DNA from: a virus
Length of the DNA stretch: 12,037 nucleotides
UHGV virus genome: UHGV-0115279
Strand: one strand, 5' to 3'
A program made the translations under genes and the position numbers. How positions within the stretch are numbered: the stretch's first letter is position 1; the number at the start of each line of letters is the position of its first letter. The notes below the pieces were generated by a model, which was not told the origin of the DNA, did no database searches, and worked only from the letters and a program-made list of their open reading frames with translations. Below, in pieces: positions 1,261 to 10,050 of this stretch.

Positions 1261-1295
1261 TCAAGTTAAAGGCCGGAGTTCTCCGGCCTCCTCCT
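1261..1295 (-). promoter_or_regulatory. intergenic stem-loop placing a distal AGGAGG next to the start codon (possible structured ribosome binding site)
   Basis: Minus-strand RNA after the stop of the 271-aa gene reads AGGAGGAGG - GGCCGGAG AA CUCCGGCC - UUUAACUUGA - AUG. A perfect 8-bp inverted repeat (+ strand 1271..1288) separates the only SD-like sequence from the ATG of the 193-aa gene. Confidence 0.35.
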
Positions 1296-2111
1296 TTAGC
1301 CAAGGCGCTTACGGCGCAGTTTCATTGACTTTTTGCGGGCAAGTTTTGCCGCGCCGGTCTGGGCTTTTCGACGCGCTTTTTTCAGCGCCGATTTTTGAGC
1401 CGCAGTCAGACGTTTTTTACGCAGGCGTTTACGGATGAGTTTGATCTCACCGTTACGAACAACCTTCTTAAATGATTCAGTCAGCATTTCATCAGAAGTG
1501 CCAGCAACAACAAACGCCGCTTCCAGTTCGTCGCGGTCGTCGCTATCTAAACCAGCGATAGAGGCACCAACATCAGCAGCTGCGTCGTCGTCTTCATCGT
1601 CAGCCAGTGCTTCGATCAGGTCATCATCTACACCGCATGCTGCGAGGAAGTCAGCAACATTTGCCCATGCTTCGTTATAGGCATCGTCCTGTTCTTCTGT
1701 AACTTCGGAGTCGTCGTCATCAGAGATACCAGCGATAGCCTGAACGAAACCATCAAGGGAGTCGAAAGTCAGATCACCGCTATCAGCCCAGGCGAAAACG
1801 GCGTCGGCCGCATCACTCAACGCATTCTGCATAGCACTTCGATTTGCAGCTTCCAGAATCATCTGGTGCGCCTGTTCGACGGTCCATTCTTTACCGTCTT
1901 TCCCTTCCAGGATTTGCTCAGGAGCCGTGGCAGATGGAGCGTTATCGTTAGTCTGTGCCGCCGGTTCCGGATTATTATTAATAACCGGATCTGTTGTCGG
2001 TTCGGCGCTTGCTCGGGCAGACTCCATCAACTGCACAGGATCAGAGTTCAAAGCGAAACGAGACAGTCCATTCCCCAAAAATGCCCCGGATTGAAAAAAG
2101 TTTTTGCTCAT
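1296..2111 (-). CDS. acidic protein with extremely basic C-terminal tail (phage virion-associated or DNA-binding protein, function unknown)
   Basis: 271-aa ORF with ATG at 2111..2109 and an AAGGAAA Shine-Dalgarno 5 nt upstream. N-terminal ~200 aa is strongly D/E-rich (e.g. DDDDSEVTEEQDD, ADDEDDDAAAD); the last ~55 aa is K/R-rich (KRLRKKRLTAAQKSALKKARRKAQ..RRKRLG). Position corresponds to the gene after the sheath gene in the P1 late operon as I recall the map. Confidence 0.6.
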   Translation of the reverse strand: MSKNFFQSGAFLGNGLSRFALNSDPVQLMESARASAEPTTDPVINNNPEPAAQTNDNAPSATAPEQILEGKDGKEWTVEQAHQMILEAANRSAMQNALSDAADAVFAWADSGDLTFDSLDGFVQAIAGISDDDDSEVTEEQDDAYNEAWANVADFLAACGVDDDLIEALADDEDDDAAADVGASIAGLDSDDRDELEAAFVVAGTSDEMLTESFKKVVRNGEIKLIRKRLRKKRLTAAQKSALKKARRKAQTGAAKLARKKSMKLRRKRLG

Positions 2112-2120
2112 TGTATTTCC

Positions 2121-3710
2121 TTACTTAATAAGCAGCGGTACGCCCTGGATACGACGGGCTACGCCAGTCGGGCAGCAGGCCCAGACTACTTCCCATTTAT
2201 CGAATTCCGCCTGCGTAACTTTCAGCACATACGGTTCTGTACCGTCAGCATCAGGATCACGAGGAGCCACCAGAGCGCCGGAGGCGACAAAGCGATCCAA
2301 AAGTTTGGTCATCCCTTTAGTCAGGCCAGACTCAGTAATGCCGTCCGGGTTATGCTTCATCTGTCGGGCTAACTGGACAAAGAAACGGCTGATTGCGTTC
2401 ATCAGGGATGGGACGTGCTGGAAATGCAGATAGTTGTCCTGCGTGCAGCAAGTTAAAGCATCATCGATGATCATCTGGCCCGAAGTACCTACAGATACTT
2501 TATTGAGTCGGCCCTTGACCATAGCTTCTTCGTCCGGGGTGTCTTCAGGATACAGCGGCTGAAGTGATGCACGAGCAATGACGGCACGTTCTTCACCAGC
2601 CGGTGAGTAATGCCAACCGCCGACATCGGAGTTTTTCTTGACGCCACGAGCTATCGCCGCATACGCCGCGCCAGACAGACCGAAGATCACGCGGGATTGG
2701 GTCCATTTGTCTTTGCAGGAGAACGGGAAATGATAGACAGCACAGCTTACATAATCGGTACCAAGTAAACCGGTATCTTCAACAGCAGAGATCGCTTCCG
2801 TGTACGTCAATGTCGGTTTGACATCAAAGAAGCCATCAATCAGGCGATCAGAACAGATATTACCTAACGCAGTGATCGCCGCATTGTCATAGCAACCCAG
2901 GCCGAGAACAGCGGTGTACATGTACGGCGCATTGTTCAGCACTTTCACCGCACGCAGGTAAGCAGCAGTGGAAATGTTCGACTGATCGCCGTTGGTACCG
3001 CCAGTGAACGCCAGCGATTTTTTATTTGTTACTTTCGCCGTCGAAATCAGCTCTTCATTAACAACCGCGCGCAGATATTTAGAACGGGCTTCCAGAGCCG
3101 TAGGCAGATAACACAAGCGGCCCATGTCATCTTTCGCTTCTTCCGCCAAAGACACAGTGTGTGTCTCCAGGGTCGTTACCACACCGAGCGAAGTCGTCTG
3201 GGTCAGTTTTAAGAGGAAGCGTTCATTACCCGCGCTGTCCGCTGTTGCCGTTTCGATGGTTAACTCACGGGTAGGAGAAATACACGGATCACCATCATCA
3301 ACGTAGATAGCAAAGGCTTCGCCGCTATCAAGTTCAATTTCAGAACCGTATGGCAACGCACTGTAAGCCGGTTCGCCTGATTCATCGAACATAATAATCG
3401 GGAACTTCGCATCATCCGGAACAGCACGGACAACATAACCAGACGTTTGCTGAATAGCTTCGTACACATGGCGAATTGGTTCGAACTGTGAGCCGGAGGA
3501 CGGCTTCAGCGGTTCGCCGAGAACATCTTCGTAATTGGACTCAGTAACCGCAAGAACAGTAAACGGCTTGCCACGCGCAAATACGCCAATACCAGCCCAC
3601 AAGCTGCTATTTAATACAACACCGGTAGATAACGTCGCATCGGCATTGATCGGGCTAACAGCGACACCGGATGCATTACCTAATGACTGTTGAATTGAAT
3701 ATTGAGACAT
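2121..3710 (-). CDS. putative contractile tail sheath protein
   Basis: 529-aa ORF (~58 kDa) with ATG at 3710..3708 and an AGGGAAA SD. It lies immediately downstream of the major head gene, matching the P1 late operon order (head gene 23, sheath gene 22) as I recall it. Assignment is by size and synteny, not a verified motif. Confidence 0.55.
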   Translation of the reverse strand: MSQYSIQQSLGNASGVAVSPINADATLSTGVVLNSSLWAGIGVFARGKPFTVLAVTESNYEDVLGEPLKPSSGSQFEPIRHVYEAIQQTSGYVVRAVPDDAKFPIIMFDESGEPAYSALPYGSEIELDSGEAFAIYVDDGDPCISPTRELTIETATADSAGNERFLLKLTQTTSLGVVTTLETHTVSLAEEAKDDMGRLCYLPTALEARSKYLRAVVNEELISTAKVTNKKSLAFTGGTNGDQSNISTAAYLRAVKVLNNAPYMYTAVLGLGCYDNAAITALGNICSDRLIDGFFDVKPTLTYTEAISAVEDTGLLGTDYVSCAVYHFPFSCKDKWTQSRVIFGLSGAAYAAIARGVKKNSDVGGWHYSPAGEERAVIARASLQPLYPEDTPDEEAMVKGRLNKVSVGTSGQMIIDDALTCCTQDNYLHFQHVPSLMNAISRFFVQLARQMKHNPDGITESGLTKGMTKLLDRFVASGALVAPRDPDADGTEPYVLKVTQAEFDKWEVVWACCPTGVARRIQGVPLLIK

Positions 3711-3769: not shown

Positions 3770-4951
3770 TTACTCAGAGTCACCGGCATCAATCGTGTCG
3801 CCGCTTATAAAGTTAAGCCCGCCTTTTTTGGCCATTGTCAGCGTTACACGAGTGAAGTAATCAGCGCCGTTGCGTGGGTGCATATCGTTGATAGCCGAAC
3901 CCCACAGCGTGGTACGGTTGACCAGCGCCGGAGTGGTCGGATGCTGGAACGGGATGGCCGGGACAGCATCACCAGTCACGAAGCCTGCTTTACCCGGATT
4001 TTCATCACGGACGTAGCACAGCACATCCATCGAGCTGAACTGAATGTTCTCTGTCGTTAAGTTCTTACAAATACCAGCAGGTACTTCGTACACTTTCACG
4101 TTACCGAACAGGGTACCGATGTAGTGAACATACGGAGTCTGGATATAGTCTTCGGCTGACTGGAAGAAATCCTTCGGCAACTGTTTGAAGAAAGATGCTG
4201 CATCAGCACCAGCAAACATCCCCATCGCACCAGAAGATTTAACGCGCTCAATAATGTCGCGATATACAGTCTGGAATTTGCCACGAATGATGGTTGCCCA
4301 TACATCAAAGGACTGGTTAACCGGCAGAGCGATGTCAAAGGTGTCGGTCGCAAGAGTACGCCAGATCATGATGCGAAGACGCAGCATATCCTGTTCATGA
4401 GACAGGTATTCCTTCAGGGTGCGGAACTGTAGGGAACCCAGGTCCAGACCAAATTCACGCTGTGCTTCATACGCCGCCTGTACCGTGTGCTCAGCCGCGA
4501 TAACGAACTGACTTGGGAACAGGGTGTATTTCTTCATTTCGTGGTTGATCAGCGGGATCAGCTCAGGAGCGGCTTCAATATTGATTTCCGTCTCAATTGC
4601 GATCTCAGTGCCTTTATCCGGCGCTTTGGAGAACGACAGGGCAATCTGACCAATGTTGTAGTTCAGAGAGCAGGTAACAGTGATTTGCTCACCAGCAGCA
4701 TTAGTAAACGAGTGAAGTAGGCTGCCGGAACCGTTATCAACAACAGACTTAATACGGTTAACGTAGATGTTAGTGCGACCTTTTCGGATTGGTACATTCT
4801 GGCCTTCGAAGTCTTCCATCTTGAAGGTTGCGGTTTTGCTGGTGCCATCGGAGCTTGCCAGCAGCATAAGAACCAAAAGATGAACCTGCCACGTTAAAGA
4901 CTTCATAGATGTCGGACTGGTCACGCGTAACCGGAATGAAGGTACACGCAT
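3770..4951 (-). CDS. major head (capsid) protein, C-terminal ~365 codons; the upstream part appears to continue in another frame
   Basis: 393-aa ORF with no convincing RBS at its annotated ATG (4951) and a non-protein-like N-terminal ~30 aa, while the sequence from ..SSDGTSKTATFKMEDFEGQ onward looks like genuine protein. It overlaps the 4770..5432 ORF by 182 nt in a different frame. Confidence 0.6.
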   Translation of the reverse strand: MRVPSFRLRVTSPTSMKSLTWQVHLLVLMLLASSDGTSKTATFKMEDFEGQNVPIRKGRTNIYVNRIKSVVDNGSGSLLHSFTNAAGEQITVTCSLNYNIGQIALSFSKAPDKGTEIAIETEINIEAAPELIPLINHEMKKYTLFPSQFVIAAEHTVQAAYEAQREFGLDLGSLQFRTLKEYLSHEQDMLRLRIMIWRTLATDTFDIALPVNQSFDVWATIIRGKFQTVYRDIIERVKSSGAMGMFAGADAASFFKQLPKDFFQSAEDYIQTPYVHYIGTLFGNVKVYEVPAGICKNLTTENIQFSSMDVLCYVRDENPGKAGFVTGDAVPAIPFQHPTTPALVNRTTLWGSAINDMHPRNGADYFTRVTLTMAKKGGLNFISGDTIDAGDSE

Positions 4952-5432
4952 CAGCGGTAGCTGCCCCCAACTGAACAGGCAGGATCATCGCGAGGAATAA
5001 AGGCAGACGCATAACACCGTCAGAAACGCTCATCATCTCTGCTGCGACGGATTCCAGCATCGCTTTATTAGTGGCATCCATGCTATTGCGGGTGGACTCA
5101 ATCAGGCAGTTTTCCAGCGTCTGGTGGCAGGAGGCCAGAATTTCCGGACGCGGCATAGATTTATGTGCTGCGGCGTAGTCAGCCAGTGCACTTGCCCACG
5201 CTGTAGCGATTTGAGCGGTGGCATTATCAGAGATACCCGCAAAAACCGGGTCTTTACGTGCAGCTTCAAGGATAGATGCGGCACGCGCGGCATCATCTTT
5301 AATGAATTGGTTATCAGTACCGAACTGCGCAGTGCTTGCCCAGCCAAGCACAGCTTTAGAGCGTTTTGCGATATCTGCAATACGATTCTGGTATTCGCGT
5401 AAGTTACTCAATTTACTCTTCCTTAAACACAA
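4770..5432 (-). CDS. major head (capsid) protein, N-terminal portion (Ala-rich helical delta/scaffold-like domain), frame-shifted relative to 3770..4951
   Basis: The 220-aa ORF in the track begins at a TTG. The likely true start is the in-frame TTG at 5411..5409, preceded by AAGGAAG with 6-nt spacing. The N-terminal part is Ala-rich and protein-like; the last ~28 aa (KLRWHQQNRNLQDGRLRRPECTNPKRSH) look like out-of-frame read-through. Confidence 0.55.
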   Translation of the reverse strand: MCLRKSKLSNLREYQNRIADIAKRSKAVLGWASTAQFGTDNQFIKDDAARAASILEAARKDPVFAGISDNATAQIATAWASALADYAAAHKSMPRPEILASCHQTLENCLIESTRNSMDATNKAMLESVAAEMMSVSDGVMRLPLFLAMILPVQLGAATADACTFIPVTRDQSDIYEVFNVAGSSFGSYAAGKLRWHQQNRNLQDGRLRRPECTNPKRSH

Positions 5433-8019: not shown

Positions 8020-8829
8020 TTATTTGCTAAGAGCAGCGAATAATCGTTCGAAATCGATAGTATCTATAGCACGCGTAAGCGCCGGAAGTTCAGCCTCAAA
8101 GTACCCGTGTCGATCGTAAAAGAAGGGACCGAAGAGCGAGGCATGTTGGATTCTACTTCGCCCCAGCCCGGACACACAGTTAAGCCCATTACCGGCTAAA
8201 AGGCTAAAAAACTTCTCTGGATTATCGTGGTAAAGCTGGGAATCAATGGTGGCGGTTAACTCTTCCATAGGGAAGCACACCCGCCCTGTATCCCAGGGAT
8301 ATTTAGTCCGAAGCATAAACATTGCTTTCAGCAATTCACATTGAGCGCGGATCGCGTCCGGTTCATAGCCAGATATGGAGACATAAGCCACGTCCCTCAT
8401 TCCTGCGTCATCTTTGAAAGTCACGATAGAAGTAACATCCAGCTCTTTTTCGAAAGAGCAAGCAGCATCTACTGGACGCTGAAGTAAATCATTCGACTTA
8501 ATGCGCTCGAGAATCCCTCCCCACATATCATTTAGATATTCGATATGAGCCAAAACCTTATCAAGACACTCTCGTGTAAACCATTCAGTATGCCCGCCAC
8601 CGACGCTTTTCTCCCACGGCGCATTCCAGGGGAAAAAGGTTGCGTGTAAAGCCCGCTCAAGATTAACCATTGCCAAACGCGTACCACGATAGACCCGTGA
8701 AAGCGCAAAATCGGGACTCACTTGTAGCCCTTTAAACCGTGCCAATGGACCACATGAAATGCCGATTTTAAAAGTATCTCCGTTCTCTGGCACCAGAACG
8801 TAGAGGTAGTGTTGTTTCTCTTCTTGCAT
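8020..8829 (-). CDS. GIY-YIG / T5orf172-like domain protein with uncharacterised C-terminal domain (candidate accessory, defence or anti-defence gene)
   Basis: 269-aa ORF with ATG at 8829..8827, weak SD, TAA stop and its own intrinsic terminator. The N-terminal ~90 aa (HYLYVLVPENGDTFKIGIS...R...LERALHATFF...GGGHTEWF) follows the Y-x-Y-[VI]-L ... KIG-x-[ST] ... R ... E..LH ... TEWF pattern of the GIY-YIG-related T5orf172 (MUG113-like) family. Residues ~100-269 have no motif I recognise. Confidence 0.75.
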   Translation of the reverse strand: MQEEKQHYLYVLVPENGDTFKIGISCGPLARFKGLQVSPDFALSRVYRGTRLAMVNLERALHATFFPWNAPWEKSVGGGHTEWFTRECLDKVLAHIEYLNDMWGGILERIKSNDLLQRPVDAACSFEKELDVTSIVTFKDDAGMRDVAYVSISGYEPDAIRAQCELLKAMFMLRTKYPWDTGRVCFPMEELTATIDSQLYHDNPEKFFSLLAGNGLNCVSGLGRSRIQHASLFGPFFYDRHGYFEAELPALTRAIDTIDFERLFAALSK

Positions 8830-9121: not shown

Positions 9122-10006
9122 TTATGGATTGCGCTTATGGATCTGGAAGCCGATTTTCCTGCCGTTTTTTATCTCTGAAAATTTAAGATATTCAATAGCT
9201 TCCAAATCTTTCATGGCTTTTCTGATAACGCTATTTTGCACGCTAACGGATGATTTGAGATTAAGCCTCGCTCTAAGGCGCTCAATGCTGACAGGTGCCG
9301 GGTTGGCGGGTAGAGCCTCAAAGAATGTATACAGTACCTTGGCCGTCTCTTTGCGCCCTAGTTTATCCAGCATCTTCAGCTTCAGGATTCGCTTATAGTC
9401 AACATAGTAAAGTTCAGATAGCTGTTTCTGCGGCTGGATCTCGATAACATCAAGCTCGGTATTCAGGCTGCTATATGCCAACAAGTTGACGTTAATGTTA
9501 TTGAGATGACCTTTTGCCGCCGGGAAGCGGAATTTGACAACTGTCTGCTGAATGCGTGTCAGAGAGTCATCAATACTTTTACGGAACGCCTTTGAAAGGC
9601 GCTTACGTGGATAGCCGCATCGATCGGCAAACTCGGAGAATGGCAGGGTGATTATGCCGTCATCATCAGGTGCGTAGTCAAACAACGCGGAGGTTATGCC
9701 CACCCACACCTTAAAATCAGTATCCATATCCAGGCGTGGACCATGAATTTCAATTCCCTCATAGCCTTCCTGCTCAACAATTTTGAGGCTTGATAGTTCT
9801 TCAGTTGCGTTCGTTGTGTTTGTTGTAACTGACGATCCGCGACGTAGCGCCACATTGGTAGATTTTAAGGTTGGCACAAACACACCTAAGCGCAACAAAG
9901 CGATGGGTTGTATAGTGCTGTTGTTATTGGGCTTCAGGCTGTGGATTTCTCCTGTATTTCCTGCAACTTCTTCAACGCTAAGGAAGCCTTTACTTTCTTC
10001 CGGCAT
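9122..10006 (-). CDS. repA: RepA iteron-binding replication initiator (RepA/RepE family)
   Basis: ORF 9122..10042 in the track starts at a TTG; the most plausible start is the ATG at 10006..10004 (MPEESKGF..), with GGAG 8-12 nt upstream, giving 295 aa. Blocks IQPIALLRLGVFVP, IHGPRLDMDTDFKVWVGI, FSEFADRCGYPRKRL and LYTFFEALPANPAPVSIERLRARL resemble the P1 RepA / F RepE initiator family, and the gene is flanked by iteron arrays on both sides. Confidence 0.85.
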   Translation of the reverse strand: MPEESKGFLSVEEVAGNTGEIHSLKPNNNSTIQPIALLRLGVFVPTLKSTNVALRRGSSVTTNTTNATEELSSLKIVEQEGYEGIEIHGPRLDMDTDFKVWVGITSALFDYAPDDDGIITLPFSEFADRCGYPRKRLSKAFRKSIDDSLTRIQQTVVKFRFPAAKGHLNNINVNLLAYSSLNTELDVIEIQPQKQLSELYYVDYKRILKLKMLDKLGRKETAKVLYTFFEALPANPAPVSIERLRARLNLKSSVSVQNSVIRKAMKDLEAIEYLKFSEIKNGRKIGFQIHKRNP

Positions 10007-10050
10007 CACGGTTTCTCCATGTGTGGCGCGGCCTGACGTCAATTTGGATG

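Follow-up and report, generated by a model that had tools for sequence, protein, structure and literature searches.

What does gene 21 of the P1-type phages do? P1 is a textbook phage, and the databases have spread the name 'tail tube protein' over about 600 clusters of the gp21 family. In GenBank, P1 gene 21 is annotated as 'baseplate or tail tube', and several records call its product 'tail tube protein Gp21'. The 'tail' label reportedly goes back to electron microscopy of amber mutants in 1983.

We analyzed gene 21 in a stretch of 12,037 nucleotides of the virus genome UHGV-0115279 (the window), which is 97-99% identical to the P1-type phage-plasmids phi456, P1, SJ46 and RCS47. Our analysis suggests that gp21 is probably a prohead scaffold or core protein cut by the T4-type protease Pro, and not a part of the tail. 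What is new here are the cut-site motifs of gp21 and their co-variation with the capsid maturation site. If gp21 is indeed a processed head core protein, then the family annotation is wrong, and the P1 assembly pathway and head-size control (large/small heads, DarA/Hdf) need revisiting.

The gene 21 locus

Gene 21 occupies positions 1296..2111 on the minus strand, with an ATG start and the stop codon within these coordinates. It encodes a protein of 271 aa (29.2 kDa, pI 4.5), the orthologue of P1 gp21 and P7 Upf54.2. The protein belongs to PHROG 1053, which is labelled 'unknown function'. The full-length HMM match to the PHROG 1053/P1 gp21 family has an E value of 2.3e-98 across residues 10-270, and the identity to gp21 of P1 and P1-like phage records is 95.7-99.2%.

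All neighboring genes are minus-strand genes as well: bplB (158-667), pmgG (679-1260), the sheath gene 22 (2121-3710) and gene 23 for the major capsid protein (3770-5432). The operon order in the window is 23-22-21-pmgG-bplB, and in relatives it is prt-pro-MCP-sheath-gp21 (MCP, major capsid protein). The sequence-only reading placed gp21 in the middle of a tail gene block. This is right for part of the operon, which also holds gene 23 and, in relatives, the prt-pro-MCP head genes. Since head and tail genes stand together, the operon is a mixed head/tail block.

Between the stop codon of gene 21 and the start of pmgG lies a gap of 35 nt. The gap contains a GC-rich hairpin of 10 bp (1268..1291, minus strand) with a dG of -24.2 kcal/mol (z = -4.06; 0 of 200 shuffles are equally stable). 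The Shine-Dalgarno sequence of pmgG, AGGAGG, is buried inside it. The hairpin may throttle PmgG, which each virion contains in only 6 copies (a hexamer), or link its translation to that of gene 21. It is an operon context relevant to coupling or polarity toward the downstream tail genes.

The window copy of gene 23 is broken. Compared to P1 it has a 65-bp deletion near 4861, flanked by short direct repeats (GCTGCTGGTG...), which leaves two overlapping ORFs (4770-5432 and 3770-4951). Either this is a capsid-incapable copy (a defective prophage-plasmid) or it is an assembly error. Beyond gene 23 the minus strand carries, in order, parB and parA, a T5orf172 ORF, a RepFIB-type repA, and upfA and mlp. 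The T5orf172/GIY-YIG-like ORF (269 aa) between parA and the RepFIB-type repA (8020-8829 and 9122-10042) sits where P1 itself has the incA iterons, an arrangement common to SJ46, RCS47 and Ro157c2YLVW.

Charge and predicted structure of gp21

The sequence-only reading described gp21 as an acidic body with a basic C-terminal tail, and this bipartite charge is real. Residues 1-215 contain 31 Asp, 18 Glu, 4 Lys and 4 Arg (net -41, pI 4.05), and residues 216-271 contain 14 Lys, 11 Arg, 8 Ala and one Glu (net +24, pI 12). The charge segregation is 65, far beyond chance: 100,000 shuffled versions of the sequence reach 41 at most. It is also conserved: in 34 aligned homologues (down to 32% identity) the acidic N-part always has a net charge of -27 to -41, and 34/34 carry a C-module of 56-57 aa with a net charge of +18 to +26. 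The details of the description hold less well. The Asp/Glu runs said to dominate the N-terminal ~200 aa occur in residues ~96-212, but the first ~70 residues are only mildly acidic and rich in Pro, Ala and Asn. Lys, Arg and Ala make up 59% of the tail, which is thus not 'almost entirely' composed of them.

Structure prediction had been proposed as a check. We modeled gp21 with AlphaFold2, using the family alignment (mean pLDDT 69), and the model is helical plus disordered. Residues 1-74 are mostly disordered, with a pLDDT below 50 up to residue 70. Within them, the N-terminal segment (residues 1-30; 2022..2111, minus strand) is predicted to be disordered and ends with the family-wide N-site L-M-E30|S31. 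It is a candidate propeptide or capsid-targeting segment, a concept established for the T4 internal proteins. The alignment and the structure model then delimit a disordered Pro/Ala/Asn-rich linker of variable length (residues 31-74; 1890..2021, minus strand), which contains the lineage-specific motif I-L-E69|G70 (codons 1902-1907, minus strand).

Residues 75-212 (1476..1889, minus strand) are predicted to form an acidic all-helical domain with six helices between residues 78 and 205. Here the pLDDT rises from about 71 to 92, and it is lower past residue 200. Two motifs lie inside this domain, I-L-E87|A88 (1848-1853, minus strand) and L-I-E167|A168 (1608-1613, minus strand). The nearly invariant C-site L-T-E212|S213 (1473-1478, minus strand) follows in the low-confidence linker 210-224. 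At the N-site, the E69 site and the C-site alike, the pLDDT is below 50.

The remaining residues, 213-271 (1299..1475, minus strand), make up a polybasic module of 59 aa (6.86 kDa, net +25). It is the best-conserved stretch of the family, in sequence as well as in composition, with the consensus KVVRNGK.KLIRKR...SAQK.ALKKARRKA...AKLARKKSMKLR.KR.G. The module is predicted to consist of a beta-hairpin (VVRNGEIKL) and then two basic helices (237-250 and 253-269). Every tryptic peptide of the module is <=7 aa long.

Homologues and database searches

The gp21 family comprises 600 representative clusters at E <= 1e-3 and is unnamed. Among isolated phages, tblastn finds gp21 matches only in punaviruses, D6 and JK004. 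Sequence and profile searches of Pfam, NCBIfam and the PDB with gp21 return nothing but chance matches to streptavidin and uL23, and a Foldseek search of the AlphaFold2 model against the PDB and BFVD returns none below E = 0.08. Known DNA mimics are not among the Foldseek matches in the PDB at E <2, nor do they appear in BFVD, Pfam, NCBIfam or the PDB sequence search. While BplB matches phrog_1120, gp21 has no PHROG or Pfam tube match. We dropped the idea that the basic tail is akin to the ribosomal proteins S21/S20, for which there is no profile match.

Some family members (among P0185, P0187, P0212 and P0216) have a duplicated basic module, and in others the N-region is expanded to seven repeats of a 'VLDNAEE'-type motif. 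P0212 has an extra zinc-ribbon-like N-terminus. For this phage group PHROG labels are misleading, as the matches of the window ORFs 3770-5432 and 679-1260 and of L032 pro show: phrog_1801, the protease Pro, is labelled 'tail fiber protein', and the major capsid protein (phrog_1014) has the label 'unknown function'. 'Head morphogenesis' is the PHROG label of PmgG, PmgC and PmgB, which are in fact tail or connector parts or tail factors.

Virion content and mutant phenotype

Mass spectrometry of virions, another check proposed by the sequence-only reading, has been published for P1. In these LC-MS/MS data gp21 is not among the 23 virion proteins, although its four neighbors are. Four tryptic peptides of 15-22 aa are available from residues 1-215 of gp21. 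The P1 tail and whole-virion cryo-EM papers do not mention gp21, and it is absent from the PDB, which has its neighbors PmgG and BplB. Solved structures of the P1 tail show a tube made of BplB, with Tub as its initiator and PmgG as the linker. Mature virions lack prohead core proteins or contain only pieces of them, and gp21 is likewise not found in the virion. This absence fits a degraded scaffold and a chaperone alike.

A CRISPRi screen scores gene 21 as essential, but its authors caution that a knock-down has polar effects on essential genes further downstream. Here these genes are pmgG and bplB. In the P1 literature that we searched, no clean deletion of gene 21 is reported, and a search for its phenotype gave no result. 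The tail phenotype classically ascribed to am21 could reflect a genuine tail role, amber polarity on pmgG/bplB, or a merely positional assignment of 'gene 21' to this ORF.

Two recent papers, from structural and proteomic work, describe P1 as having no separate scaffolding protein and give this role to the 120-residue N-terminal propeptide of gp23 (the delta domain). Hence, in the published view of P1, the position of a separate scaffold is vacant.

Cut-site motifs of the prohead protease

The distant homologues of gp21 were where we first saw a family motif, hydrophobic-[L/M/F]-[E or D]-[S/A/G]. It has two fixed places in the family, one about 30 residues into the protein and the other precisely where the acidic domain meets the basic module. 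Distant homologues carry extra copies, up to seven, in the disordered N-region. In the window, gp21 has exactly five L/I-x-E-[SAG] sites, at E30, E69, E87, E167 and E212. If all five were cut, the predicted fragments would be 30, 39, 18, 80, 45 and 59 aa long, and the last would be a basic peptide of 6,856 Da with a charge of +25.

These sites match the maturation motif of the P1 capsid protein, MLE120|S. Edman sequencing has placed the mature N-terminus of gp23 at S121; therefore the cut is AMLE|SVAAEM (MLE120|S121). We used this experimentally determined site as the reference motif; in the window its codons E120|S121 lie at 5049..5054 on the minus strand. All three motifs of gp23 lie within the delta domain, the propeptide that is cleaved off and removed.

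The candidate enzyme is Pro, a prohead protease of the T4 gp21 type (HHpred 99.4% in a published supplement). Pfam does not recognize Pro, so its identity as a protease rests on the published HHpred match. [quoted passage not shown] In its family, specificity drifts between relatives.

A scan of the P1 proteome (84 proteins) ranks gp21 first in motif density, with 1.48 motifs per 100 aa, and Pro second with 1.47; the proteome mean is 0.16. P1 gp21 contains 4 strict motifs, with 0.39 expected from shuffles. The same scan finds zero motifs in Sit, Tub, BplB, PmgG, PmgB, gp24, gp6 and BplA.

Co-variation with the capsid maturation site

A protease whose specificity drifts offers a comparative view of its substrates. 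We collected 27 genome loci and 80 diverse viral contigs, the latter from a scan with a D-variant alignment, and 76 of these loci contain a capsid gene and a gp21 homologue. The gene order (prt-pro-)MCP-sheath-gp21-PmgG is invariant in all 76.

The residue before the cut agrees between the capsid site and the gp21 C-site. Among non-redundant loci it is D/D in 49 and E/E in 15; L020 has A/A and L028 has A/S. None of the 76 loci is truly discordant, and three apparent exceptions in the automated table are regex artefacts, as judged from the sequences. An aromatic residue at P2 also tracks between the two sites. The number of phylogenetically independent switches is at least three, but only about 3-4. 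One of them is seen in L022, whose capsid protein shares 47.6% identity with an E-type member, compared to 23% with the D-clade, which indicates that its D arose independently of the large D-clade.

The switch extends to the motif content of the whole proteins. From the E-clade to the D-clade, the E-/D-motif values change from 3.41/1.12 to 0.35/4.59 in the major capsid protein and from 3.35/0.76 to 0.40/2.34 in gp21; Pro has 0.42/2.96 in the D-clade. The control proteins sheath, BplB, Tub, PmgC and Sit (the tape measure) show no E->D motif switch. Composition bias as the cause of the switch is rejected by shuffles. In E-clade gp21, D outnumbers E, yet E-motifs occur at 7.5x and D-motifs at 1.2x expectation, and in D-clade gp21 the values are 1.0x for E-motifs and 3.3x for D-motifs. 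P1 gp21 itself is D-rich and yet uses E-motifs.

Sites for the phage's own protease that match the capsid maturation site characterize the prohead core class, and gp21 has motifs of this kind. To judge from its motifs, gp21 behaves like a substrate of the prohead protease, an enzyme active only inside proheads. Because these motifs follow the changes of the capsid maturation site, gp21 is most likely a head-assembly (scaffold/core) protein. The sequence-only reading had listed a scaffolding or internal head protein among its options, and this option gains strong new comparative support.

A distant relative, the Mailhella metagenome contig L003 (6304-15459), carries both P1 tail modules contiguously, in the order MCP, a 103-aa ORF, sheath, gp21, PmgG, BplB, PmgC, Tub, PmgB and a long ORF, probably for the tape measure protein. 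The scattered arrangement of tail genes in P1 thus appears to be derived.

A proposed model for gp21 in head assembly

The most economical model is that of a scaffold or core protein. In this model, gp21 would be built into the P1 procapsid. The 59-aa polybasic helical hairpin would attach gp21 electrostatically to the inner shell or the delta-domain layer, later possibly to DNA, and the acidic helical domain would fill the core. Pro would then cut after Glu at the L/I-x-E|S/A/G sites E30, E69, E87, E167 and E212. The cut at E212 would free the acidic domain from its basic anchor, and small acidic fragments would exit before or during DNA packaging. We infer the cutting by Pro, the prohead location and the binding partner of the basic module. 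As the sequence-only reading had proposed, the basic tail may plausibly bind nucleic acid or the inside of the capsid.

The acidic part of gp21 recalls the T4 core proteins. T4 gp22 is acidic, helical and about 270 aa long. Like gp22, gp67 and gp68, gp21 is acidic and helical, has multiple x-x-E| sites for a T4-type protease and is absent from mature virions. Furthermore, in both phages the protease itself carries the same motifs (T4 gp21, P1 Pro). The core proteins of T4 have multiple protease sites, and therefore their fragments can leave the head. The differences are equally clear. There is no detectable sequence or fold relationship between P1 gp21 and T4 gp22/67/68, and gp22 lacks the conserved polybasic C-terminal module. 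In P1-type phages gene 21 follows the sheath gene, whereas the T4 core case precedes the capsid gene, and the cleavage of P1 gp21 is predicted from motifs.

For the basic module the closer parallels lie elsewhere. In the herpesvirus scaffold (pre-VP22a/UL26.5) a short module at the C-terminus probably tethers the protein to the shell, and a cut just upstream, at the M-site, frees the scaffold. The herpesvirus assemblin-fold protease is of the same fold class as T4 gp21. In phage P22 the C-terminal basic helix-turn-helix of gp8 binds the coat by charge. By analogy, a cut at E212 would have a function like that of M-site cleavage in herpesviruses or of freeing the gp8 helix-turn-helix in P22. 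Compared to these modules, that of gp21 is longer (59 aa), far more basic (+25) and has a beta-hairpin before the helices.

Several points stand against a scaffold. The 'baseplate or tail tube' label of am21 does not fit, as a true scaffold mutant should show aberrant heads and normal tails. Gene 21 always lies between the sheath gene and pmgG. The field regards the 120-aa delta domain of gp23 as sufficient. Finally, we found no fold or sequence similarity to any known scaffold. It is the conflict with the classical am21 tail phenotype that keeps our confidence in a scaffold at probable and no higher.

Alternatively, gp21 could be a non-virion assembly chaperone for the baseplate, tube or sheath that is released before the tail is finished. 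The tape measure protein or a tail subunit would be bound by its acidic domain, and its basic tail would bind the negative tube lumen or acidic tail subunits. We consider such a chaperone unlikely but worth keeping in mind. Tail chaperones are often small, acidic and helical. Like lambda gpG/gpGT and P2 gpE/E+E', gp21 is acidic, helical, needed for the tail according to its annotation and absent from virions. The classical amber annotation, the invariant position between the sheath gene and pmgG/bplB in 76 loci, the negatively charged tube lumen and the acidic neighboring proteins all agree with such a role. However, unlike those chaperones, gp21 is not encoded between the tube and tape-measure genes, has no frameshift extension and carries head-protease motifs. 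In P1 and in the contiguous Mailhella module the position between tube and tape measure is held by PmgB (Tub-PmgB-Sit), and for this reason we dropped a tape-measure chaperone. No minus-strand ORF of >=50 aa overlaps gene 21 and extends past its stop codon, as a frameshift product would. The sequence-only reading had stated that identification as a conventional tail assembly chaperone would count against it, and by position and lack of a frameshift extension gp21 does not look like one. Furthermore, the amber phenotype could stem from polarity on pmgG/bplB or from positional gene assignment, and the CRISPRi call is confounded by polarity. A cytoplasmic protein would have no use for motifs that follow the capsid site and the protease in their changes, and none of the real tail proteins shows this pattern. 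Hence, a chaperone explains the synteny and the old label, but not the behavior of the motifs. A structural tail tube or baseplate protein is supported by the database names. BplB, Tub and PmgG already fill the places of tube, initiator and linker in solved structures, and gp21 appears in no P1 structure nor in the virion proteome. Its predicted fold is helical and not the beta-sandwich of tubes such as T4 gp19 or BplB. We give this reading the lowest probability of all and regard it as effectively excluded.

The protease sites would equally suit a packaged internal or ejection protein, trimmed by Pro, whose 59-aa polybasic peptide stays on the DNA, as T4 internal proteins or the core peptides of adenovirus do, and is injected. 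The acidic part would then be only a delivery or neutralizing pro-domain. The C-module is strongly basic (net +25) and strongly conserved, trypsin cuts it into peptides of <=7 aa that LC-MS/MS could not show, and the Dar proteins of P1 are a known case of packaging and injection. T4 IPI-III are likewise basic polypeptides that are delivered into the prohead, trimmed after Glu by the prohead protease and kept with the DNA; they differ in that the basic part of gp21 is C-terminal and small and the larger part is acidic. However, a near-universal core gene in fixed synteny is easier to understand as an assembly gene than as one for an accessory protein that is injected. We judge a purely internal protein to be improbable, and it overlaps with the scaffold reading rather than excluding it. 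A dual role, which we consider unlikely, would combine the two: the removable acidic core would be the 'missing' scaffold of P1-type myoviruses, and the +25 peptide of 59 aa would stay in the head, condense DNA and be co-injected. Because the basic peptide yields only tryptic fragments of <=7 aa, proteomics could not have seen it, and with a dual role cryo-EM would also have missed the retained peptide. The sequence-only reading also proposed that the acidic domain mimics DNA, as an anti-restriction or anti-nucleoid protein of the Ocr/ArdA kind would. Only the strong negative charge of residues 96-212 and the investment of P1 in anti-restriction speak for it. The domain has no structural or sequence match to any mimic, contains cut motifs itself and is absent from virions, and the gene is a conserved, syntenic member of a late morphogenetic operon in about 600 family clusters, not an accessory. 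A DNA mimic is thus unsupported, very improbable and effectively excluded.

Possible uses of the motifs and other predicted substrates

If gp21 is a processed scaffold, then its clipped basic module and its N-terminal segment are candidate handles for cargo of the P1 capsid, beside the known DarB signal. Co-variation of the pre-cut residue between the capsid site and other proteins is a cheap and maybe reusable way of listing prohead-protease substrates in uncultured phages.

P1 Pro (L032, 13015-14034) has five cut motifs of its own, MLES36, MIES120, MFES168, LLES222 and LFES293. Its C-terminal half has a weak coiled-coil-type Pfam match only. Together these features suggest that Pro processes itself and may carry a C-terminal extension resembling a scaffold.

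DarA (P1 darA; L032, 21905-23824) has a single strict motif, LLE68|A69, one residue before the first residue modeled by cryo-EM (70). N-terminal sequencing of DarA had failed, and hence the motif serves as a prediction of where the protein is matured. Upstream of it there is another site, LMTE42|S43, of the T4 type.
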